Part shown: one piece after another, positions 40,923-52,352 of the stretch
Numbering within the stretch: the stretch's first letter is position 1
How the letters are laid out: each line of letters begins with the position of its first letter
IMG/VR virus record: IMGVR_UViG_3300045988_162656
DNA length: 64,000 nt
Origin: a virus
Taxonomy: Duplodnaviria; Heunggongvirae; Uroviricota; Caudoviricetes
Direction: 5' to 3' (one strand)
Notes under the pieces: model-generated
What the model was told of the DNA's origin: nothing
Databases searched by the model: none
The model's input: the letters and a program-made list of their open reading frames with translations, nothing else
Translations under genes and position numbers: made by a program

Positions 40923-41047
40923 GTGCTTTCCTTTTTACTTATCATTTTATATTGATTATATCATTGTGATGATAAGGCAAGGAGTTCGAGGATAGGGGAT
41001 ATGAGGGGATAAGGGAAAACATGGCCATAGAGGCCATGTTTATGGGA

Positions 41048-44000
41048 TCACGTCTTAATGGTTTCTGCTACGTCGGCTAATATCGCTTCTAGTCGTTCTC
41101 CCTCTTCAGGTCTGAAGTAAAGAATGTTGGGGTTAAACCCGTAAAAGACAGTAACGTCAAGGTCTGGAAGGTACTCCTTCCTGCCGACCAAATCGGATGG
41201 CTTGTTTTTGTTGTTAAACAATGCCGTTGCCCGGCTGCCACACGTCAGCACATAGGTCGGACGCACCAGATTGATCTCTTCACGTATAAAGTCGGTGAAC
41301 TGGCCGATCTCGTCTTTGGTGTAGTCTTTTTCTTTGTCTTTAACCTTCTTGCAAACGCCTGTGACATAGAGATCGCCCATGCGTAAATCTCCAGCCGTCA
41401 ATAGCTTGGCCTTAAAGTCGTCGTATCCGTTCTCCATAAAGTAACCGGTTCGAGCATCATTGCCGTTCGCATTGTCCAGAATGATCATGATTTTCGGCTT
41501 AATGCCAATGCTAGGGCGGATTAGTTCATCACCTAATCCCATTTCAGCCGCCATCCGTGTCATGAGCACGTTAATCTCAGCCGAACGTTTGGGGTTCATC
41601 TCAAACGGACGTGAGGCTTTAACTGCGTCTATGACAAGGTTTCCCATCAATTCAGCCTGGTCGCGGAGACGCTCTGGATCAGTTGCTGGCAGACTACCTG
41701 GCTCGATGGATGCAAACGCACCTACTTTTTGCAGTGATTCGCGCACTCGACTATTACAGGCACGTTTCTCGACAGCTTCTTCGAATTGCGCCAGTGACTC
41801 GAATTTGCCGCCAACTTTTTCTCGCGCTCTCATGATGGCTTGGCAGCCATTCTCAGAACACCCTTTCACAGCAGAGAAGGGCGCATACAGCACCTGGCTG
41901 CCATCTTCAAGCGTGCGGATCTCGATTCGGTTAGATGACACGTTAACGTCTGGTGGCAATACGCGAATACCATAGGTCAGCGCATCTTTAACCAGCCCCT
42001 GGTGTTTATCTTCGCCAAGAATAGTGAGAGCAGCAGCGAAGAACTCCGCGGGATAATGAGTTTTCAACCACATAGATTGATAACTGATTAAGGAGTAAGC
42101 AACAGAGTGTGATTTGTTGAACTGGTAGGCACCATTCTTTTCGAATGCGGTCCAGATCTCCTTCGCTTTCATCTCTGATAGCCCTGGATGTGACGCTGTA
42201 ACGCGTACTGCGTTTATAGGTAGTTTTGCGCCGTACTCAAGTGCCTCTTCGACAGTTTTCAGAGTTCCGTCTTCGCATTTAAAATGTTCCGCACGGTGAA
42301 TGCGCTGTGTAGTGCCATCTTCCAGCTCAACGTCTATCCAGCCAGCTTGAGCCTGAACGATGAACTTCTCGCCCATGCTCTTCATTTTTTCCATGTCTTT
42401 TTTGCCGATCGCTTTACGAACGCCGTCAGCTTCAGCCATTGTGAAGCCAGCAAGCAATCGAGTCGCGTTCATCGTCTGTTCCTGATAGAGAATCACGCCA
42501 TTTGTTTCTGCGGTAAGTTCATCAAGAACGGGGTGTAATGATTCCGGCGTCATAAAGCCTTTGGCTACAGAAACATAGTCATCCAACATGCCTGACTGAA
42601 TTGGCCCCGGCCGGAAGAGCGCAGTCGTAGCAACAACCGTTTTAAAGCTCATTGGCTCAATTCCACCACCTAAATCTTTAAGCAGCTTGCGCATTGGGCC
42701 TGATTCAAGCTGGAAAACACCTTGAGTGTACCCAGCAGCAAAACCATCCAGCACCTTGCGATCTTCAAGAGAAATGGCATCAAGATTGATATCTTCACCT
42801 GTGTTCTCTTTTATGTAGCGTTTTGCACTATCGAGCAAATCGAGAGTTGCCAGACCAAGTACGTCCAGCTTAATTAGGCCCATAGCCTCGCAGTAACGCT
42901 TGTCAAATGCGATACAACGCGCGTCACCACGGCGTTCAACCGGTGTACGTTCTGTCAGAGGAACACCTGCTACGATCATCCCTGCCGCATGTCTACCAAA
43001 GCCACGCATAAGACTTTGTAACTTGCAGGCAGCATTGAATGCATCAGGGTATTTTGTCGCGTATTTGTCGAGACTTGCCAGTTGTTCGCGCAGCTCCTCC
43101 AATGGAAGGCTATCATCCTCGACGTTCTTCAGCTCTTTTGATACCGCCATATCTGCGGACTCCACACCATAAATACGAGCGGTATCACGTAGTGCTGAGG
43201 CTGCGCCCAGGTAGGTGAAGTTCGGAATGCCTGCAACGTAATCTTCGCCGTAGCGTTCATTCAGATACTCGATCACCTCATGGCGACGTGCCTGGCTGAA
43301 GTCCAAGTCCGCATCCGGCAAGTCGAGACGCTCAGGGTTGATGAAACGCTCAAACAGAAGACCGTGACGGATTGGGTCGACGTTGGTTATGCCTATGCAC
43401 CACGCCACCAGAGAACCGGCAGAGGAACCACGACCAGGCCCGACAGGAATGCCAGTTTCACGGCTGTGATTCATCAGATCGCGTACCATCAGGAAGTAAC
43501 CACAAAATCCCAGGCGAGTCAGCGTGTCCATTTCGTACTTTAGCCGCTCAACATAAACCCTGTTCTCAGAAGCAGGTGGTGTGTAGCCAAACTCTTTTGT
43601 GGTAAGACGTTTACGCAGCCCTGCAACAGCCAGTTTCATAAGCGTTGCAGGCTCGTCGTCTGCCATCTTTGGCAGTGCTGGTGGCAATTCATGCCAGCGC
43701 CATGTGCAGGCATCGATAATGGTATCCTGCGTTGTTGAGGCCATTGCAGCTGTTACCGGCACATCCATGCGAACGGAGAAGGTTTTCAGCGCCTCAAGGA
43801 GATGGCGGCGACCATTGACGGCGTTATCTCGCTGGTGGGGGATACGCAGACGATGCGGCTGGTCGATTTTGATGTTGTTCGTAACCATGTGCGCAATGTC
43901 TTTAATGTCTGCATCGTCGATCGATTCGTAATAAGCGGGATAGAACGCCACTGGCTCTATTTTCAATGCGCTGGCGACTTTCATCGCCCGGACGTTAATC

Positions 44001-44566
44001 TGGTCGTAGAATGGGGTAGGGTGCGGATAAACCACACTATAGAAGTTGTCTTTTCCACCCGCTGTAATCAGTGTGCTTATGATTTTTGCAAAATCGTTGC
44101 GTTGGAACACGCTACCGATGTCGGAAGTGAGCAGGATGATGTTGCCTTTGGCATATGTAGAAACCAACTGTTCGAGCGAGAGACGCGGTACAAAGTAGAA
44201 CTGTTCTCGTGTGTTGGCCACCGTCATTAGTTCGCAGATGTCGCGATATCCTTGCTCATTTTTAATTAGAGCGGTAAACGAGTAGTTACGTCCTCGCTCT
44301 AATGATTCCATACATCCCTTAGACTCTTTAGCAATTTTAGCCCGGTACTCGTATGTGGGATCATCAACAATGTTTAGTTTCACACCACAAATAACCGCCA
44401 TGTCGTCACCAGCGGCACGTTGTAGTGGAATAACACTCGCAATATTCATGCTATCTGCCGAAATTACAGCGGTGTAGCCAGCTTCTCTGGCAATCTTCAC
44501 CGCGTTTTCTGCTTTTAGAGCCGACTCCCCAAGAGAGAAGTCAGTTCGAACCATCAGAGCCTTCAT
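41048..44566 (-). CDS. dnaE: DNA polymerase III alpha-type (DnaE-like, PHP domain) replicative polymerase
   Basis: 1172 aa; N-terminal PHP domain, polymerase core motifs, length typical of DnaE. Confidence 0.8.
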   Translation of the reverse strand: MKALMVRTDFSLGESALKAENAVKIAREAGYTAVISADSMNIASVIPLQRAAGDDMAVICGVKLNIVDDPTYEYRAKIAKESKGCMESLERGRNYSFTALIKNEQGYRDICELMTVANTREQFYFVPRLSLEQLVSTYAKGNIILLTSDIGSVFQRNDFAKIISTLITAGGKDNFYSVVYPHPTPFYDQINVRAMKVASALKIEPVAFYPAYYESIDDADIKDIAHMVTNNIKIDQPHRLRIPHQRDNAVNGRRHLLEALKTFSVRMDVPVTAAMASTTQDTIIDACTWRWHELPPALPKMADDEPATLMKLAVAGLRKRLTTKEFGYTPPASENRVYVERLKYEMDTLTRLGFCGYFLMVRDLMNHSRETGIPVGPGRGSSAGSLVAWCIGITNVDPIRHGLLFERFINPERLDLPDADLDFSQARRHEVIEYLNERYGEDYVAGIPNFTYLGAASALRDTARIYGVESADMAVSKELKNVEDDSLPLEELREQLASLDKYATKYPDAFNAACKLQSLMRGFGRHAAGMIVAGVPLTERTPVERRGDARCIAFDKRYCEAMGLIKLDVLGLATLDLLDSAKRYIKENTGEDINLDAISLEDRKVLDGFAAGYTQGVFQLESGPMRKLLKDLGGGIEPMSFKTVVATTALFRPGPIQSGMLDDYVSVAKGFMTPESLHPVLDELTAETNGVILYQEQTMNATRLLAGFTMAEADGVRKAIGKKDMEKMKSMGEKFIVQAQAGWIDVELEDGTTQRIHRAEHFKCEDGTLKTVEEALEYGAKLPINAVRVTASHPGLSEMKAKEIWTAFEKNGAYQFNKSHSVAYSLISYQSMWLKTHYPAEFFAAALTILGEDKHQGLVKDALTYGIRVLPPDVNVSSNRIEIRTLEDGSQVLYAPFSAVKGCSENGCQAIMRAREKVGGKFESLAQFEEAVEKRACNSRVRESLQKVGAFASIEPGSLPATDPERLRDQAELMGNLVIDAVKASRPFEMNPKRSAEINVLMTRMAAEMGLGDELIRPSIGIKPKIMIILDNANGNDARTGYFMENGYDDFKAKLLTAGDLRMGDLYVTGVCKKVKDKEKDYTKDEIGQFTDFIREEINLVRPTYVLTCGSRATALFNNKNKPSDLVGRKEYLPDLDVTVFYGFNPNILYFRPEEGERLEAILADVAETIKT

Positions 44567-44744
44567 GTGTTTTTACCTTTCTGGTTTTTTTGATTTTGTC
44601 ATTGGGGAAGCCTACGAACTTCCCATACATCGAAATCGCAACTTCTTTTGCTGATTGGTGACAATCGGGCTTGTCTGGACACACCAGGCAAGCCTTGCCA
44701 GTTTCAGAAGCAGCGATAAGAGAGCCGAAACATCCTTTACGCAC
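44541..44744 (-). CDS. small Cys-rich protein (possible zinc ribbon)
   Basis: 67 aa with CxxC ... C ... C spacing; between AAA+ gene and dnaE. Confidence 0.3.
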   Translation of the reverse strand: MRKGCFGSLIAASETGKACLVCPDKPDCHQSAKEVAISMYGKFVGFPNDKIKKTRKVKTHEGSDGSN

Positions 44745-44746
44745 GA

Positions 44747-45982
44747 TTAACCAAATATTTTTTGAACAACTTCACGTGCCGCTTGCGCAGAAGCTGAAGG
44801 GAGTTTGTTAATGAAAGAACGCTCAATACCTGTCACAAAGTCGCCTCGCATCATTCCAATCTTGGCCGACAACAAAAGTTCACGAGGGCCAATCGGCTGA
44901 CTGATCAGGTGTTCTTCGTATCCATCGCGAACGATACCGGCAAACTTAACCATCTTTTCAGCGTATTCATCCACGATGCCAGCATTTATCAACATGCTGA
45001 TCTCTGCCTCTTTGCTCATGTATTTCACATTCGAAACGATGCCAAAACGCGAAAAGTTAGCGGCGTTCTGGATGTTTGTACCCTGGTACAAGCCGGTTTC
45101 ATCACCAGATCCGTTCGTGTTGCCAGTGCCAATGAAAGCAAACCGTTCATGCGGAGTAATGCGACGCCATTCTGGAGTCGCCTCTTTGATGACCAACGCT
45201 TCACCTTCCAGCACTGGCTGATACACGCCAAGAATCTGTGGAAACGCAAAGTCGTATTCATCCGCGAGGTAAACCCAGCCATGCTTCATTGCGAGCGCAA
45301 GCAAGCCAGGCTCGAAATACGTAGAGCCATCACGCGCCAGAATTTGTCCCGTAACATGAGCCTCTTCCATTGATGCTGTATGTTGGGCACGGATTAACGG
45401 ACGATTGAGCAAAGCACATAGTTGTGTAGGCAATGAAGATTTGCCTGTTCCTGCATGACCCCACAAATAGCCTGGTATGCCAAGTTCAAGCATCATGAAA
45501 ATGTCTTTGATCAGTTCGAAGTCGCCATATACGTATCCCTTCTTCACTTCTGGAACGAACTCTGGAAACGGCGTATTGACGTTGACGCTAACCATGAGCG
45601 GCGTCCCACGTTTTGTTCCGAGTTCTTCCACCGTTACGTTTAGCAGTTCGTGAGCTGCGACCAGATCTGTCTTGTACTCAACTGTGCCTGTGTAGCCAGG
45701 GCTACTGGTCAAGCCAGAAGATTTGGCCATTTCGCTTTTTTGCTCGGCACGTTTAGCTTGAATTGCATCAAGTGCCTTTTTCGATAGCGTTGGTTCATCT
45801 GGAAACTGCGTTGTGTACATTTTCAGTACGGTGTCAGGATCGGCATCTTTTACTGACTCAGGAATGCCCTCGCAATTACCATTGGCTACATGGGACTTAA
45901 AATAGTGAAATGATTTGCCGCACCACTTGCAAACAAGGTAATCAGAAGGATTTTTTTCATTTTGCAGTGCAGTAGTCGTCAT
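44747..45982 (-). CDS. MoxR/CobS-like AAA+ ATPase
   Basis: Walker A GHAGTGKSS, Walker B VYLADEYDFA; N-terminal Cys cluster. Confidence 0.7.
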   Translation of the reverse strand: MTTTALQNEKNPSDYLVCKWCGKSFHYFKSHVANGNCEGIPESVKDADPDTVLKMYTTQFPDEPTLSKKALDAIQAKRAEQKSEMAKSSGLTSSPGYTGTVEYKTDLVAAHELLNVTVEELGTKRGTPLMVSVNVNTPFPEFVPEVKKGYVYGDFELIKDIFMMLELGIPGYLWGHAGTGKSSLPTQLCALLNRPLIRAQHTASMEEAHVTGQILARDGSTYFEPGLLALAMKHGWVYLADEYDFAFPQILGVYQPVLEGEALVIKEATPEWRRITPHERFAFIGTGNTNGSGDETGLYQGTNIQNAANFSRFGIVSNVKYMSKEAEISMLINAGIVDEYAEKMVKFAGIVRDGYEEHLISQPIGPRELLLSAKIGMMRGDFVTGIERSFINKLPSASAQAAREVVQKIFG

Positions 45983-46077
45983 GCGTTTTTCCTTTGTTCT
46001 CTAATGAGCGTTCAACTTCTTATATAAATATACCATTAACTATCGTAAGTGGTTACTTATCATTAAGGCTGTTTTAT

Positions 46078-48186
46078 TCACTTCAAAATGATACGAGATA
46101 GTTCAGTAACTACAGATGAACCAAGACTATCAACGCTCGTTACCAGGGCATGATTTGAGTAAAATCTCTCCGGTGCGTCAGTCATGATGCCAATTGCCAT
46201 CAAATCAATGTCAGTCTGCGTTTCAATTTGCTTCGCAACCGAACGCAAATGAGCGTCAAAATCTCTCCCAACAGCCCACGGCGCGCCATCGCTCAGAACA
46301 AGCATGATCTTCCTGTCCTCCAAGCGACCGGAAAATAACGATGCAAGGCTGGCTATGCTTTCACCATCCACGTTATTAAGAAGTGGGAATGTGTAGCCTA
46401 CGCACCCCATACGTGAGCGAACTTCGCGAGAATTTACCTTTTCATTCCAATTTTTGATGATAGGTAGCATTAAAGATTCAAAGCGAGAGAACTCATACTT
46501 GACAGCCTTAAGTTCTCCTGCCGCCATATGACTACCAAATGTAGTGAAGCCGGTGATAATGTTGGGAACATTTATTCGATCAAGAGCATCGGCGATGGTA
46601 TATGCACTTGCAAGAGCCAATTGTATCGTTATACCACTCATTGAACCTGATAAATCAATAACTTGTTGAACACAGGCGTTAACGGCTTTAGATTCTTCTT
46701 TTTTACGAAACACGCGATCATCATTCATTGCTAATCTGTAGATACTAGAACCATGAATGCGCCCCCGACGCTGGCCCGGTATAAACTGAACTCTGTTTCT
46801 GCTTGCTATTGCTCGCTCCAGGTCTTTTGCCAGCGTCGACGAAACACCTGACGAAAGATGCTTTTCAATATATTTGTCGAAGAGCTGGTTGCCTTCAGGA
46901 ACGATGCGATAGCGGCTGATTGGATATCCTCCTAAATCAATATCGGAGAATGTTTTAATAAGCCGTTTGATATGGGCTTCTGCCTGATCAATCGAGCCGA
47001 TGAAGTCGTATGAGCGATTGTATGGCCTGTATTCGCTTTTCGAGCTTTCTGTTAACTCGCTTTTAATCGTTTCGGATAGAGCATCTTCTGTCATGCCTCC
47101 GACTTCATCTTCTATGCTATCCAGCTCCTCTAAAGCCTCTTCCAGACTTATTTTTGACGGAGTTGGAATATCTGAAGAGCCGTCTTCTGTCGTTTTTCTT
47201 TTTTCGTGGTCAGCGGTTAATGATTCTGACGCCGCGTTATCAGAAGCATCAGAATCTGATACCTCTTTATCATTTTCTGTATCATCGAATATTGTTTCTG
47301 ATGATTCAGAATTATCTGAATCATCACTGTCGTTAATATCATGTTTGTGCTTACTGTGTGATTCAGATTTGATAGATTTGTGGCTATCTAACGCTTCGGG
47401 TGTCTCATGATCTCCGTTGTCTTCATTGTTTTCTCCAGAGGCATCCGTCTGGTCAGCGTCTGAAGGATCGGGTGTTTTTCCCGGAGCTGACTCCTTACCT
47501 TTGCTTTCACTTTCAGTGTCTTTGAGGATCTTAGCTATGGTCGCAGCCACCTTTACACAATCCTCGGTGCAGGACATGTTACGCACGGCCACATCGATAC
47601 CATGTTCTTTTAATAATGAAATTGGTTTCTCAATGACAGGCCAGTATTCATCCATGAAATCTACGAACGGTGCTTGGCCATCCCAGGCTCTTACAACCGG
47701 ACAGAGAAAGAAGTTTAGAAAAAGCGCGCGCTGATCTTTGCCACAATAAGCAATAGCCTCTGAAGCCTTTGGTTTAAAGACTTTTTCGATTATAAGGCGC
47801 TGAGTTGCCATCAGATTACGTCTCGTTCCGTTAAAGACCTGCCCCATTTTTCGCTCGATGAACACGTCTTCTAATGCATTCCATAGTGACCGGGAAGGAA
47901 CGCGTCCTTTTTCTCTCATTTTGTTGGACACACGAATATCGGTAAACAAAATGTGAGCAACCTCATGATCGAGAAATCCGCGCACAGCATTCATCAATGC
48001 CGGTGTTGCGTTATCCGGAATTGATGGGATGTTTACGAGAATTGGCTCTCCATCATCGTTATAGCGTACATAAGCGTCGTCTCCTCGTTCTGCAACAGGG
48101 ATGTTTTTACCTGAAAGGAGAGCGACTACTCGTTTTACACTGTCACGGAAGTCCTGAACCTCTTTGATGGAACGTTTTTTAGACAT
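46078..48186 (-). CDS. CobT-like protein with C-terminal von Willebrand A domain and acidic Ser/Asp-rich repeat linker
   Basis: MIDAS motif DLSGSMSG; central low-complexity acidic region. Confidence 0.7.
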   Translation of the reverse strand: MSKKRSIKEVQDFRDSVKRVVALLSGKNIPVAERGDDAYVRYNDDGEPILVNIPSIPDNATPALMNAVRGFLDHEVAHILFTDIRVSNKMREKGRVPSRSLWNALEDVFIERKMGQVFNGTRRNLMATQRLIIEKVFKPKASEAIAYCGKDQRALFLNFFLCPVVRAWDGQAPFVDFMDEYWPVIEKPISLLKEHGIDVAVRNMSCTEDCVKVAATIAKILKDTESESKGKESAPGKTPDPSDADQTDASGENNEDNGDHETPEALDSHKSIKSESHSKHKHDINDSDDSDNSESSETIFDDTENDKEVSDSDASDNAASESLTADHEKRKTTEDGSSDIPTPSKISLEEALEELDSIEDEVGGMTEDALSETIKSELTESSKSEYRPYNRSYDFIGSIDQAEAHIKRLIKTFSDIDLGGYPISRYRIVPEGNQLFDKYIEKHLSSGVSSTLAKDLERAIASRNRVQFIPGQRRGRIHGSSIYRLAMNDDRVFRKKEESKAVNACVQQVIDLSGSMSGITIQLALASAYTIADALDRINVPNIITGFTTFGSHMAAGELKAVKYEFSRFESLMLPIIKNWNEKVNSREVRSRMGCVGYTFPLLNNVDGESIASLASLFSGRLEDRKIMLVLSDGAPWAVGRDFDAHLRSVAKQIETQTDIDLMAIGIMTDAPERFYSNHALVTSVDSLGSSVVTELSRIILK

Positions 48187-48286
48187 GGCTAATCCTTTGT
48201 TATGAAAACAAATTATTTACTAGTGTGTTTAATGTAGCACTGCGCGAACAGGGAACTAAGCCATTCGCGCAGGTAGCAGAGAGGGG

Positions 48287-48499
48287 TTAACAGGTTCTGA
48301 CGGCTAAAGAGCCAGAGCCGGTATTGATAAGCGTGAAGCGTTTGTTATTAAGTAGGAATATAAAGGCTGTTGCGTCATGCATACCAACCTGAATCTGCTC
48401 ATTTGGTAATTCGGTGAGAATGTCAGCTACACATTCATCAGCTAATTTTTCAACGTGTCCGATCTCAAGAGTGATTAGGCTGGAAATAGTTGTTTTCAT
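48287..48499 (-). CDS. hypothetical protein
   Basis: 70-aa ORF. Confidence 0.3.
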   Translation of the reverse strand: MKTTISSLITLEIGHVEKLADECVADILTELPNEQIQVGMHDATAFIFLLNNKRFTLINTGSGSLAVRTC

Positions 48500-48746: not shown

Positions 48747-49133
48747 ATGTCTGACAAAAACATTGAATTTATAGAAAGTCGCTATGCTGCTTTTATCGCA
48801 GGGCTGATTGAATCCTCACCTATGAGTCAGGCCCAAATAGCCAGACTTATTGGTTATAAAAATGCCAACAACCTTTCTTTAATTAAAAGTGGTAAAATTC
48901 CTTTGCCTATCGATAAGGTTCGTCCGCTGGCGTTGGCGCTGGGTATTGAGCCAAGTCGTCTTATGATGATGGTGCTGGAAGAACGCCAACCTGAACTCGC
49001 AGCATTTTTATACAAAGAAGGCACCGCTCCTCTTAACGAGGACGAAAAACAGGTTCTTGCTGCATATAACGAGCGATTCGGTAAAGAGAAAGGCGCATCA
49101 CAAAAGGTTGTTGAGGCCATAAAGTCTCTATGA
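48747..49133 (+). CDS. XRE-family helix-turn-helix transcriptional regulator
   Basis: HTH segment SQAQIARLIGYKNANNLSLIKSG; convergent with integrase; AT-rich promoter region upstream. Confidence 0.55.
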   Translation: MSDKNIEFIESRYAAFIAGLIESSPMSQAQIARLIGYKNANNLSLIKSGKIPLPIDKVRPLALALGIEPSRLMMMVLEERQPELAAFLYKEGTAPLNEDEKQVLAAYNERFGKEKGASQKVVEAIKSL

Positions 49134-50231
49134 AAAATTTAGACGAATAAGCTCTGTTGATAGACGATCTCCCTTGAATTTGTGGTCAATTTCGTCTAAA
49201 TCCGGTTGCTCTACGATTGATGCGATGTACGTTGAGAAACTTTCTAAGGCGTCTCGCATCTCGTCCATATAATCGTGCCGGTCGTAGACCCGATCTATCC
49301 CCTCAAGACTGTGGTTCATTATTTTGCGTGATACCTCCTGGCTTATACCTAATGCTGGGAAGTAACTACGCGCAGTACGACGCAAATCTCGAGGTGTAAA
49401 TGGCGCAAGCTCCATCAGTTCTGGTCGTTCCAGAATACGACGTAATGCCTGGGCTATTGCCACTTTAGACATAGGAAGGTCTTTCCCGATTTTTTTATTC
49501 GAAGGCACGAGCCACTGGCTGTCTTTACCGTATTCGAACAACTCTTCAATGCATGTGCGCATTAATGTGCTTAAAGGCAGCGAATGCTCACGTGCTGACT
49601 TGTTTCTCTTGCCTTGATTCCAAACTCCACGCTTAAGATTGAACTCACTTTTTTTAGCCCTCAGTACTTCGTCAGGTCGTCTTGCTGATACAAGACACAG
49701 CCTGGCCGCCCATTTTGTACCAGCGCACACATTGAAGTAGTCCCATATATTCCAGAACACCCATACCTCTGCGTCGGTCAGCTTCCGCTCGCGAGGTGTG
49801 GGCTTTGCGCCACCGGCAACTTTGTTTAGTGACATATCGTTTAACGGTGACACGTCTATCATCCCCTGGAAGGCGCACCAGCTAAGGAACTGCTTCATCA
49901 GAGAGAAAACGCGGCGGCCCATAACAATTTTGCCATCCAATATTAGAGGGTTGACCAGTTGGTTAACCATGAACCTATTAATGTCACTTACTTTTACATC
50001 AGCAATGTGCGGCAAAACATGTATCAAAATACAATGAACAGCGATCTCTGGCCGACGTCTGGTTATCAGCAGAGATAAGCGAGTGAATAACATGAATGCG
50101 TCCGAGAATATCATGTTATTGTTGATCTGTGAGATCATAATGGCCTGCATTTGAGATGCTCTTTCGAGATACTCAATTGCCTCTTTTGAGGTGTTTTCTG
50201 CTGCGCGTGCTCTGTCAAAGCTATTTTTCAT
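49128..50231 (-). CDS. tyrosine site-specific recombinase / integrase
   Basis: C-terminal catalytic region with TPRDLRRT and HSLEGIDRVYDRHDY motifs. Confidence 0.8.
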   Translation of the reverse strand: MKNSFDRARAAENTSKEAIEYLERASQMQAIMISQINNNMIFSDAFMLFTRLSLLITRRRPEIAVHCILIHVLPHIADVKVSDINRFMVNQLVNPLILDGKIVMGRRVFSLMKQFLSWCAFQGMIDVSPLNDMSLNKVAGGAKPTPRERKLTDAEVWVFWNIWDYFNVCAGTKWAARLCLVSARRPDEVLRAKKSEFNLKRGVWNQGKRNKSAREHSLPLSTLMRTCIEELFEYGKDSQWLVPSNKKIGKDLPMSKVAIAQALRRILERPELMELAPFTPRDLRRTARSYFPALGISQEVSRKIMNHSLEGIDRVYDRHDYMDEMRDALESFSTYIASIVEQPDLDEIDHKFKGDRLSTELIRLNFS

Positions 50232-50438: not shown

Positions 50439-52352
50439 TTAGGTTGGGTTGTTGATGCTAATGGTAAGTGTTTCGATAGCAAGATCATGAGTTTGGTTGT
50501 TTGTTATATCTGTTAAAACAAAAGCCTCATCACCAAGAGCAATATTGTCTTTAACCAGCTTGAATTTACTCCCCGCCTTGCCATCGAGAACGGGAATTAC
50601 AGTTCCTGTGCCTTTCTCATATTGCAACTCAAGAGTGTGCCAATTGTTGTCGTAGTCACCATATGAGTCTATCTGAACATTTCGATTATTGCCTGTCCTG
50701 TGCATCATAATGTTCAACTTGCCTCCAATTGTTTGAAGGAAGAAGTTAGCCAGAAACAGGCTCCCAGTACCGTCGAATGATATATCGTCAGCAACAGGTT
50801 TACTGGTTTTGTAATATATACCAAAGCCAAACTTAGCTTTTTTTGGATCAGGGTTTCCAGATAATTTAAACTTACAAAGTAATTTACCTCCATTCTCAAG
50901 AAGAGTCTGTGCTATGTCAGTAGCTTTACTGATCGTCCAAGTTTCGTTGGAAACCGCTTTAGTTAAAGCAATTGCTTTTCCGTTTTCAACTGACTGAATA
51001 TTTGCACCAGTTACAGTCCATCCTTGTTCAGTAGCGACATCACCACCAGCTCCAGTTAAGGAAATAACCGTTCGCGGGGTTGGAGTTGTGACAATGTTGT
51101 CATTTTTAGGTTGAGTAGGTTGTTCTTGTTTAATAATCTCACCTGTAACGCCATTCACAAAAGCAGATGATTTCGCTGAATGTGCAAGCAGCGCAGTTGC
51201 GAGACGATCAGATATTATTCCGCGTCGCTGCCATGAACCAAAATGACTCTCTCTACTCTCGGAAGTCCATGTTTTATTATCCTTGCGATGACCGGAACCA
51301 TAATAGCCAATAGATGTGATGTCTGGATCATCTGTAGGGCTATTGGTTAATACGTTATTATCATTCTCATCTTTCATGAATGGAACGAAATAAATTGCTT
51401 GTGAGGTTTTTCCCTTATAACCACCATAAACAATTTCGTACTGTTTTGGATATTTGTTTTTCCACCAGTGGGTCGTATCGCCACAAATCCAGGGTACATT
51501 TGCAGCACTTCCGAAAACACATTGTGCGTCGTATTGAGATAGCTCTTTTCTGAAACCTTCGACCATCTTGAGGAACAGTTCGTTATGCTGCGAGTACTTG
51601 CCAGTTGCCAAATCAGCTTCGCCTTGCATCCAGACAACACCAAGAAATACATTCTTTTTGTTTTTACTTAAGGCCGCTTTTGTTCTGGCTACAATATCCT
51701 TATACAAAGGAGTATTTAATCCCCATTTTAAAGATGATTCGATTGCACCTGACTCTTCATAATATTGGCCTTCAGAGCCTGTAACAGTGAAACCAGAACC
51801 ACCTCTTCCGCAAGGAACGAGCAAAATACCTGCGTTTGCTGGAATGAATGGTAATAGTTTTTTGCCAATGTGTAGTCCCTGACCAACACATCCATATTCA
51901 GAGTCGTTTGCTTTTGGATGCTTGAATTTAGTCATGTCTTGTACATCATGAAGACAGTGATCAGCGGGAATTATTTCATTGTACTTACAGGCAAAACCAC
52001 CAGGTTTAATATTGCTGCGTCGAGCTAACTGTTTTACGCGAGGATGTGGCCGATCAAAAGTTTTTGGCATAGGCAGTCCTTCGCCGTATGACATTGAGTT
52101 GGATTGACCTGCGATAGTAACTACATAATAATAGTCAGGCTCTTCATCTTCATTTGATACCGGTGTGGGCAATTGTGATAAATCACCAGATCGCACAATT
52201 GCTTGATTGTACGCATTTGGTCCGCCCTTACTTGGTTCAACAATGTTTGGTGACTCGAAAGGTTGCCAACCCTCTGCGATTTTCTTCGCAAGTTTTTCTC
52301 TAAGCTCTTTGCTTGATGATGCTGACAAAATATCATAGTCAATGAATGACAT
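50439..52352 (-). CDS. SGNH/SASA-family (sialate O-acetylesterase-like) esterase domain protein with C-terminal beta-rich domain
   Basis: GQSN motif (IAGQSNSMSYG) near N-terminus; 637 aa. Confidence 0.55.
   Translation of the reverse strand: MSFIDYDILSASSSKELREKLAKKIAEGWQPFESPNIVEPSKGGPNAYNQAIVRSGDLSQLPTPVSNEDEEPDYYYVVTIAGQSNSMSYGEGLPMPKTFDRPHPRVKQLARRSNIKPGGFACKYNEIIPADHCLHDVQDMTKFKHPKANDSEYGCVGQGLHIGKKLLPFIPANAGILLVPCGRGGSGFTVTGSEGQYYEESGAIESSLKWGLNTPLYKDIVARTKAALSKNKKNVFLGVVWMQGEADLATGKYSQHNELFLKMVEGFRKELSQYDAQCVFGSAANVPWICGDTTHWWKNKYPKQYEIVYGGYKGKTSQAIYFVPFMKDENDNNVLTNSPTDDPDITSIGYYGSGHRKDNKTWTSESRESHFGSWQRRGIISDRLATALLAHSAKSSAFVNGVTGEIIKQEQPTQPKNDNIVTTPTPRTVISLTGAGGDVATEQGWTVTGANIQSVENGKAIALTKAVSNETWTISKATDIAQTLLENGGKLLCKFKLSGNPDPKKAKFGFGIYYKTSKPVADDISFDGTGSLFLANFFLQTIGGKLNIMMHRTGNNRNVQIDSYGDYDNNWHTLELQYEKGTGTVIPVLDGKAGSKFKLVKDNIALGDEAFVLTDITNNQTHDLAIETLTISINNPT

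Follow-up and report, generated by a model that had tools for sequence, protein, structure and literature searches.

What does a phage do with two genes that resemble cobS and cobT of the bacterial cobaltochelatase and that lie beside its DNA polymerase gene? The question is raised by positions 44541-48186 of a 64,000-nt stretch of the tailed-virus record IMGVR_UViG_3300045988_162656 (the whole of that stretch is called the window here), and it reaches beyond this one element, as studies of phages and viromes routinely list cobS and cobT among the auxiliary metabolic genes for cobalamin. A preliminary description of the window had seen in it a MoxR-type ATPase adjacent to a vWA (MIDAS) protein, had called the two CobS/CobT-like and had placed them beside the polymerase gene. 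All of this was borne out, by matches to Pfam AAA_5 and CobT_C/vWA with a complete MIDAS, by matches to the Brucella CobS (E 8e-25) and CobT (E 1.9e-16) proteins, and by a dnaE gene at 41048-44566 on the same strand. The most informative feature of the locus had been missed there: an intact HExxH zinc-peptidase motif in the N-terminal domain of the CobT-like protein. The reading that we prefer, with about even confidence, is that the pair forms a machine that uses ATP to remodel a client and probably also cleaves it, and that it is expressed with the DNA-replication genes of the phage and serves early or replication functions.

The DNA of 44541-48186 is 100% identical to that of the E. coli O104:H4 plasmid NC_018651.1, a Shigella sonnei plasmid and Escherichia phage CMS-2020a; the identity is 98% with phage Cyrano and 75% with Salmonella phage SSU5, and there are matches in 470 enterobacterial plasmid records; judged by these identities, the window is part of an SSU5-type phage-plasmid. 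Three co-directional open reading frames (ORFs), all on the minus strand, occupy the interval. The two that form the pair, and the parts of the first on which the argument turns, are these:

46078-48186, minus strand: CobT-like protein of 702 aa (Pfam CobT and CobT_C, PHROG 1576, PDB 9uka_G, AlphaFold2 model)
44747-45982, minus strand: CobS-like MoxR-class AAA+ ATPase of 411 aa (Pfam AAA_5, PHROG 249, Brucella CobS)
47491-48186, minus strand: N-terminal domain of the CobT-like protein, residues 1-232, with a helix, a three-stranded sheet and a helical bundle; predicted M48-like zincin fold
47953-47967, minus strand: H74-E75-V-A-H78, the HExxH zinc-peptidase motif, invariant in 128 of 128 phage-type homologues
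47854-47871, minus strand: E106-D107-x3-E111, candidate third zinc ligand or 'glutamate helix', invariant in the 128 phage-type sequences

A first protein-homologue search returned near relatives only, and a single-sequence viral scan with the CobT of Vibrio podovirus ICP2 found ICP2 itself only. A search of 1.84 billion cluster representatives with the N-terminal domain (residues 1-225) gave 1168 clusters at E <=0.001, and HExxH was present in all 127 of the full-length proteins among the best 150 matches. Across the 128 aligned phage-type sequences, which are 32-74% identical, residues G70, D73, H74, E75, H78, E106, D107, E111, G120 and N124 are invariant. The motif occurs as well in ICP2, Gordonia phage Woes, roseophage CRP-810 and Rhizobium phage RHEph10, and the combination of this N-terminal domain with a vWA domain is common to many bacterial and archaeal tailed viruses; Xanthomonas phage JGB6, with its fragmented and frameshift-ridden record, was left out.

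Bacterial CobT is different at just this place. HExxH is found in none of 80 CobT proteins of Hyphomicrobiales, nor in a rebuilt Brucellaceae CobT, which reads D80-S-M-A-L-R85 there; these 81 have S/A-M/I/L-A-L-R/K in its stead. The four CobT proteins of Pandoraea, Caballeronia, Cereibacter and Sphingomonas are likewise without it, having A-x-A-L-R/Q, so that all 85 bacterial CobT proteins examined carry (S/A)-x-A-L-(R/K/Q), a pseudo-peptidase pattern that the window protein does not share. In the AlphaFold2 model of the N-terminal domain (pLDDT 90.4), whose topology of helix, three-stranded sheet and helical bundle is that of Brucella CobT_N, the HExxH motif lies on a predicted helix of residues 62-81, and E106, D107 and E111 lie on the second helix after it (98-117). 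The positions of E106 and E111 are both kept as Glu in bacterial CobT as well. A structural preprint on the Brucella CobS-CobT-CobN complex (CobSTN; bioRxiv 10.64898/2026.07.21.739949) calls CobT_N M48C-peptidase-like, with no mention of zinc or HExxH. Since the motif is kept in the phage type and replaced in every bacterial CobT examined, the phage type would seem to be the form with catalysis intact, and the bacterial protein a pseudo-peptidase.

The Brucellaceae protein used in this comparison had to be rebuilt from two frames, and its numbering agrees with the residues named in the preprint. A search seeded with the C-terminus of Brucella CobT, which returned truncated proteins only, had led to this gene: in assembly GCA_012103055.1 (Brucellaceae) cobT is split by a frameshift near codon 178 (contig L003, 3316-5380), which would be an assembly error or a pseudogene.

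The remainder of the 702-aa protein has the full architecture of a CobT, namely an N-terminal domain, an acidic disordered linker, a shaft and a vWA domain with MIDAS. Pfam CobT covers residues 9-294 (E 7.6e-28) and CobT_C/vWA residues 492-701 (E 2.1e-81), PHROG 1576 matches at E 7e-298, and the phmmer alignment to Brucella CobT (PDB 9uka_G; E 1.9e-16) runs across shaft and vWA. The full-length AlphaFold2 model has a pLDDT of 82.7. The parts that follow the N-terminal domain are:

47152-47490, minus strand: disordered, acidic Ser/Asp/Glu-rich tether, about residues 233-345, with the compositional bias reaching to about 385 (pLDDT, composition)
46678-46800, minus strand: equivalent of the CobT 'shaft', residues about 463-503, placed by phmmer alignment to the Brucella segment Q373-R413 (preprint numbering)
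46081-46677, minus strand: vWA domain with complete MIDAS (D511, S513, S515, T548/T549, D633)

The MIDAS is complete as D511-L-S513-G-S515, T548/T549 and D633; in the phage-type alignment the first three of these residues are invariant and T548/T549 and D633 at least 90% conserved. The best Foldseek matches of the vWA domain were the NorD vWA in NorQD complexes (E 2.9e-9) and the MIDAS domains of Rea1/MDN1; the full-length model matched vWA domains only, in a PDB library that did not hold the Brucella CobT structures. The shaft equivalent holds a conserved basic loop, P-G-Q-R-R-G-R at 470-476, in which G471 is nearly invariant and G475 invariant. In Brucella, the Q373-R413 shaft sits inside the pore of the CobS ring (bioRxiv 10.64898/2026.07.21.739949), and by homology the shaft equivalent of the window protein would enter the pore of its own motor.

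That motor, the 411-aa protein, matches Pfam AAA_5 at E 2.2e-15, PHROG 249 at E 9e-106 and, over residues 142-411, Brucella CobS in the PDB at E 8e-25. Its Walker A (G175-S182), Walker B (D241/E242), sensor-1 (N288), arginine finger (R312) and sensor-2 (R367) are at least 95% conserved in 37 phage-type sequences and align with the catalytic residues of Brucella CobS, so that the AAA_5 ATPase site is intact; the protein is a CobS homologue and a MoxR-class AAA+ motor predicted to be catalytically competent. As in other MoxR/vWA pairs it has a neighbour with a complete MIDAS, and of 51 dereplicated loci 42 have a CobS-like gene adjacent to cobT. The interface between CobS and CobT_N keeps its polar core, Q407/K408 facing N124/D73 where Brucella has Q311/R312 facing N130/D80. 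Among the shaft-contacting residues of Brucella CobS, I112 is kept (as I214), while S102 has become E206 and R147 has become F247. The C-terminal hydrophobic helix alpha10 of bacterial CobS is missing from the window motor, which has in turn an N-terminal extension of roughly 140 aa that is absent from bacterial CobS and finds no Pfam family at E values up to 5. Within the extension lies one further feature:

45890-45931, minus strand: zinc-finger-like C18-x2-C21-x4-H26-x4-H31 of the CobS-like protein, recurring in relatives; putative metal-binding site

This CCHH motif is present in most CobS-like proteins of the group of phages with a DnaE-type polymerase, the second Cys being Asp in some.

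The company that the pair keeps is the other part of the evidence. In 41 dereplicated loci of DnaE-type phages (less than 70% CobT identity; phages of about 100-115 kb, including Rhizobium phage RHEph10 and Pseudomonas phage nickie) the order in most is a helix-turn-helix (HTH) gene, a small ORF, cobT, cobS, often a sigma gene, a small four-cysteine (Cys4) gene, dnaE, uvsY and gp32. ICP2 and ICP2-like contigs (about 40-60 kb) have instead cobT, cobS, small ORFs, a primase, a DnaB-type helicase, a family A polymerase (PolA) and a PD-(D/E)xK nuclease. Taking 47 loci, dereplicated at less than 55% identity, in which cobT is followed by six or more ORFs, a replication gene lies within six ORFs of cobT in 34. 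No recurrent cluster of structural genes was seen around the pair in 41 and 51 dereplicated loci, where not every neighbour is annotated. The pair is thus tied to the replication or early module across two unrelated replisome types, DnaE on the one hand and PolA/DnaB on the other.

How such a machine could work is suggested by the Brucella complex. Six motor subunits would form a ring gripping the shaft of the adaptor in its pore, as expected by homology to Brucella CobS-CobT-CobN, and the N-terminal domain of the adaptor would dock on the small subdomain of one motor. In Brucella CobSTN, the docking site of CobN on CobT_N consists of the three-stranded sheet and the beta3-alpha2 loop, and domain VI of CobN lies beside the MIDAS (bioRxiv 10.64898/2026.07.21.739949). 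At the corresponding site in the phage machine a client would be clamped between the sheet and active-site cleft of the N-terminal domain and the MIDAS face; ATP hydrolysis would pull the shaft and so remodel the client. The client would probably also be cleaved at the putative zinc-peptidase site, because the cleft that contacts it keeps HExxH...E, unlike that of bacterial CobT. It probably has to do with host takeover or with the start of DNA replication by the phage, because the pair is co-directional with dnaE and directly upstream of replisome genes in two unrelated phage groups.

The most familiar interpretation of such genes in the literature is a different one, that phage CobS and CobT join a host CobN as a cobaltochelatase and boost cobalamin, for example for a B12-dependent ribonucleotide reductase. 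It has true homology to both chelatase subunits on its side, with all architectural parts kept, and a gene supporting nucleotide metabolism would be plausible near replication genes. The chelatase, on the other hand, requires CobN, which holds the active site and the metal-chelation residues (bioRxiv 10.64898/2026.07.21.739949); the preliminary description, which had looked to intact metal-chelation residues in CobS and CobT as the mark of a true orthologue, was asking for them in the wrong subunits. Other than DnaE there is no ORF of at least 800 aa in the window, and in Cyrano, with a genome of 108 kb, no CobN was found over the first 100 kb. E. coli is not known to have CobN, for which no search was made there, or de novo corrin synthesis; only its lack of CbiB could be confirmed. 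Other enterobacterial hosts are known to use an anaerobic corrin route that is free of CobN. Cyrano encodes a class Ia ribonucleotide reductase, NrdAB, and ThyX, so that nothing annotated there depends on B12. The scores against the NCBIfam equivalogs are about one tenth to one seventh of their cut-offs, 70.4 bits against 759.05 for CobT (TIGR01651, with only residues 295-697 aligning) and 83.5 bits against 558.55 for CobS (TIGR01650, PD_CobS). The N-terminal domain keeps the peptidase motif that is lost in every true CobT examined, and the same pair is found in ICP2, a phage of V. cholerae. With no CobN found in the window or in that part of Cyrano and none known in E. coli, the pair does not qualify as a cobaltochelatase orthologue and most likely cannot make B12 in this host, and an auxiliary metabolic role is highly improbable. 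An equally slight chance is given to the suggestion, made in the preliminary description, that the acidic Ser/Asp/Glu insert may itself do the work, by mimicking DNA or by accepting phosphate. Its gene does lie beside DNA-replication genes, and the insert has a net charge of -24 to -36, depending on its limits, with 26% Ser and Thr. By composition and pLDDT an acidic insert is certainly there; the repeats attributed to it are not, as Tandem Repeats Finder reports none over 44400-48400, and it extends somewhat further than residues 230-330. Residues 222-385 have 31% Asp and Glu, 26% Ser and Thr and a net charge of -36, and pLDDT falls below 50 for residues 237-339, between two confident domains. 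A like linker is found in bacterial chelatase CobT (n=81; about 92 aa, 41% Asp and Glu, median net charge -35), where, in the Brucella CobST cryo-EM maps, it is disordered and invisible (bioRxiv 10.64898/2026.07.21.739949); the rebuilt Brucellaceae CobT linker is similarly rich in Ser, Asp and Glu. All 61 phage-type proteins considered carry one, of 82-302 aa with a median of 40% Asp and Glu and a median net charge of -45, and that of the window protein (124 aa between anchors 222 and 346) has 30% Asp and Glu and a net charge of -24. Known DNA mimics are folded and have charges at fixed spacing, which counts against a mimic here. The linker is hypervariable in sequence and length already between close relatives, with protein lengths of 684 to 790 aa. 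For these reasons, the shared and disordered bacterial linker and the hypervariability, the insert behaves as the ordinary flexible tether of the CobT family, and nothing points to mimicry or to a phospho-acceptor role.

Three further explanations accept the machine and assign it other work. Iyer et al. 2021 (PMC7824862) noted the same architecture in a group 2.2 jumbo-phage pair, a MoxR ATPase beside a vWA domain fused to an N-terminal metallopeptidase, which we compared by description only, and proposed, by analogy with Acidianus two-tailed virus, a chaperone and processing protease for virion assembly. A protease with a chaperone would suit the maturation of heads or tails, and against this the window genes stand in a replication module, the recurrent neighbours in 41 and 51 loci are HTH, sigma, DnaE, PolA, primase, helicase, ligase, UvsY, gp32 and nuclease genes, and the structural module of Cyrano (genes 1-21) is about 20 kb away, beyond lysis, partition and replication genes. 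This counter-evidence is guilt by association, and not every neighbour is annotated, yet we consider a part in virion assembly very unlikely. Less unlikely, though still well short of even, is a motor-adaptor chaperone or metallochaperone without proteolysis, like NorQD, CbbQO or CoxDE, in which HExxH would only bind or deliver metal or hold a client such as NrdB, the Cys4 protein or a protein of the replisome. In none of the characterised relatives (CobST, NorQD, CbbQO) does proteolysis enter into the remodelling of a client or the insertion of metal; the vWA domain has its closest match in NorD, and putative metal-binding modules, the Cys4 protein and the CCHH finger of the motor, are conserved alongside. 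The gene is moreover retained in nickie and three other lineages that have lost HExxH. What speaks for cleavage is that H-E-x-x-H, including the catalytic Glu, is invariant in the 128 sequences in spite of their divergence, as an active peptidase predicts, and that the relatives whose N-terminal domain is purely a scaffold, the bacterial CobT proteins, have replaced all three residues. Finally, the pair could be a host-takeover or anti-defence protease that destroys a host protein early, for instance a defence or nucleoid protein, the replication genes nearby reflecting early timing only. The early-region position in both phage groups, the frequency of MoxR-vWA pairs in conflict systems, and variable motor extensions and a hypervariable linker that could reflect an arms race all suit this idea. 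When four proteins were scanned with PADLOC, the one match, to DrmE, was at chance level, which says little, since PADLOC lists defence and not anti-defence; the high conservation of the domains across hosts from Actinobacteria to Archaea fits a conserved phage client or a universal one better than a fast-changing defence target, and we think an anti-defence protease distinctly unlikely.

Several considerations weigh against the client-remodelling, probably proteolytic machine that we prefer. In keeping with the preliminary description, the literature that could be searched yielded no experimental function for any phage pair of the CobS/CobT type. Pseudomonas phage nickie, which reads S-E-I-S-K, and three ICP2-like contigs (L251, L254 and L285) have lost HExxH with the gene in the same position, so that some lineages can do without catalysis and the central role may not be proteolytic. 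Part of the retrieval of viral contigs used a pattern containing HExxH, by which the motif counts from these samples are biased. The CobS interface by itself is enough to account for the invariance of D73 and N124. Synteny may in part be the vertical inheritance of a whole module, and a gene supplying B12 for nucleotide metabolism would also sit near replication genes. The scans for promoters and terminators were uninformative, with counts that did not exceed those of shuffled sequence.

The known systems bracket this client-remodelling machine from several sides. Both window proteins are homologous to those of Brucella melitensis CobSTN (PDB 9uka and related entries), with the same adaptor architecture, AAA+ residues and polar interface core; they differ in having no CobN partner, an intact HExxH, a longer and more variable linker, the extra CCHH extension of about 140 aa on a motor without alpha10, and equivalog scores far below the cut-offs. 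NorQ-NorD and CbbQ-CbbO likewise combine a MoxR-class hexamer with a single vWA/MIDAS adaptor that engages the client. NorD is the best structural match of the vWA domain, and NorQ and CbbQ give weaker sequence matches to the window motor; a zincin domain is missing from NorD and CbbO, which act on the known clients NorB (in the maturation of NO reductase) and Rubisco (as Rubisco activase) and are not phage genes. In midasin (Rea1) the AAA modules match the window motor at E 8e-12 and the MIDAS domain is a top structural match. A long acidic Asp/Glu-rich linker tethers the MIDAS domain of midasin to its ring. Midasin differs in being a single giant eukaryotic polypeptide that removes ribosome-assembly factors and has no peptidase. 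The M48/M56 gluzincins (Ste24/ZMPSTE24, BlaR1, minigluzincins) have, like the predicted fold of the N-terminal domain, an HExxH helix after a small beta-sheet and conserved Glu residues on a downstream helix; the window protein differs in being soluble and not membrane-embedded, and its peptidase activity is a prediction. FtsH is a functional analogue in its AAA+ ring and HExxH protease, which are fused there and would here be separate polypeptides joined by way of the shaft.

The gene pair and the peptidase-vWA fusion are already known, and the novelty of the present analysis is modest. Entries for SSU5-type genes named for porphyrin biosynthesis, CobT or AAA ATPase have long been deposited, and Liu et al. 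2021 catalogued viral cobST, proposed that the viruses hijack the CobN of the host, and regarded as an error the 'peptidase' annotation of cobT in cyanophages. Added here are the contrast in HExxH between viral CobT and its bacterial counterpart, the case against a chelatase in this host, the association with two types of replisome and the identity of the small gene. We would extend the argument only tentatively to the view that phage CobS/CobT, far from being a B12 gene, is a widespread, MIDAS-targeted, ATP-driven protease for a replisome-associated or DNA-bound client at the start of replication, and that cellular CobST is the same machine, with a dead protease, reused for CobN; if this were true, cobS/cobT entries in virome catalogues of auxiliary metabolic genes would be largely mislabelled. 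That this lineage at least does something else is argued by the kept zinc-peptidase site, by hosts not known to have CobN, and by the position directly upstream of replication genes in two groups. The pair offers an evolutionary link between a protease-adaptor and a chelatase motor, and hundreds of phage-plasmids of E. coli, Salmonella, Klebsiella and Yersinia carry it in genetically tractable form.

A confusion of names has added to the difficulty. In enterobacterial nomenclature CobT is a phosphoribosyltransferase and CobS a membrane synthase, both unrelated to the phage pair, and in Cyrano (OV696614.1) the pair, CYRAN_47/48 (contig L001, 12207-15646), is labelled 'dimethylbenzimidazole phosphoribosyltransferase' and 'cobalamin synthetase' because of this collision with the CobT and CobS of Salmonella and E. 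coli. On the bacterial side, CobS/CobT-like pairs without HExxH occur outside cobalamin contexts in Pandoraea pPO70-1 (contig L328, 4398-7842) and Caballeronia pNK83 (L330, 4973-8580), one of these two directly after ureG in a urease cluster and the other beside genes for a GTP-binding protein and an amidohydrolase, hinting that cellular CobST-like motors may serve other metalloenzymes. In Brucellaceae (L003, 1024-3368), Cereibacter (L329, 3169-5296) and Sphingomonas (L331, 3023-5970), cobS lies near a conserved BolA gene and a gene for a J-domain protein.

The third ORF of the interval and the polymerase gene that follows it are:

44541-44744, minus strand: four-cysteine (Cys4) protein of 67 aa, GTG start (PHROG 6337)
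41048-44566, minus strand: DnaE-type DNA polymerase of 1172 aa (Pfam PHP, DNA_pol3_alpha, finger and HHH_6)

The cobT-like and cobS-like genes are 95 nt apart; the Cys4 gene starts 2 nt past the cobS-like stop and overlaps the dnaE start by 26 nt. The small Cys-rich gene of the preliminary description proves to be a real one. Its product, with the motif C5-x13-C19-x2-C22-x5-C28, matches PHROG 6337 at E 4e-47 and the N-terminus of PHROG 3616 at E 4e-5; homologues with as little as 69% nucleotide identity still have 67 codons, and against SSU5 it shows 11 synonymous and 5 non-synonymous changes, a sign of purifying selection. The motif (P)G-C-[FY]-G-x11-C-x2-C-x5-C, with all four Cys, is invariant in homologues from 22 divergent loci. 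In relatives the Cys4 module forms the N-terminus of a PHROG 3616 protein of 170-260 aa, long homologues being found in phages nickie and RHEph10; by comparison with these the 67-aa protein is a truncated PHROG 3616 homologue that keeps only the N-terminal, putatively metal-binding Cys4 module. Neither it nor its homologues of 176-180 aa match Pfam at E values up to 5. The spacing C-x13-C-x2-C-x5-C bears some resemblance to Fe-S motifs and fits the C-Xn-C-X2-C-X5-C pattern of WhiB-like [4Fe-4S] proteins; membership of that family was rejected for want of a Pfam match. Membership of the zinc-binding anti-sigma factors was rejected as well for the 67-aa protein and PHROG 3616, as the H-x3-C-x2-C motif of that class would need a His four residues before C19, where there is none, and as there is no Pfam match. 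Gene order alone fits an anti-sigma factor: a Sigma70_r2 ORF precedes the long homologues in relatives, and none stands at the window locus. Among the ORFs lying between cobS and the Cys4 gene, six of the seven tested match Sigma70_r2, five above the Pfam cut-off. An ORF of this kind, of about 210 aa, is found between the cobS-like and Cys4 (PHROG 3616) genes in most relatives (contig L165, 10819-11454, with equivalents in L171-L230); the window and other SSU5-like elements do not have it and retain the 67-aa Cys4 remnant only. The long Cys4 protein may be a sigma-associated factor, and the link of the Cys4 gene to the cobT-cobS pair is positional only.

The gene order around the interval is helicase, primase, ligase and integrase; then an HTH repressor and a 70-aa ORF; then cobT, cobS, Cys4 and DnaE; then a UvsY-like protein, a gp32-type single-stranded DNA-binding protein, an exonuclease and RecA. 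The 70-aa ORF (48287-48499, PHROG 2627) is directly upstream of cobT, where small ORFs recur in relatives. The HTH repressor-like gene (48747-49133) is convergent with a tyrosine integrase gene (49128-50231), and in many distant loci an HTH gene stands one or two ORFs upstream of cobT. Next to the integrase a 637-aa ORF (50439-52352) appears to be variable cargo, because it is present in a 98%-identical IMG/VR contig (L235) and missing from the equivalent position in Cyrano. In Cyrano a HicA/HicB toxin-antitoxin pair (L001, 6823-7671) is inserted between dnaE and the UvsY-like gene, where the window has a 125-nt spacer (40923-41047). The C-terminal extension of DnaE (about 250 aa, 41048-41809) has a weak match to Pfam UDG (E 0.0015, below the cut-off) and matches also PHROGs 4335 and 13175, both of unknown function; its homologue in RHEph10 is annotated as UDG-like.

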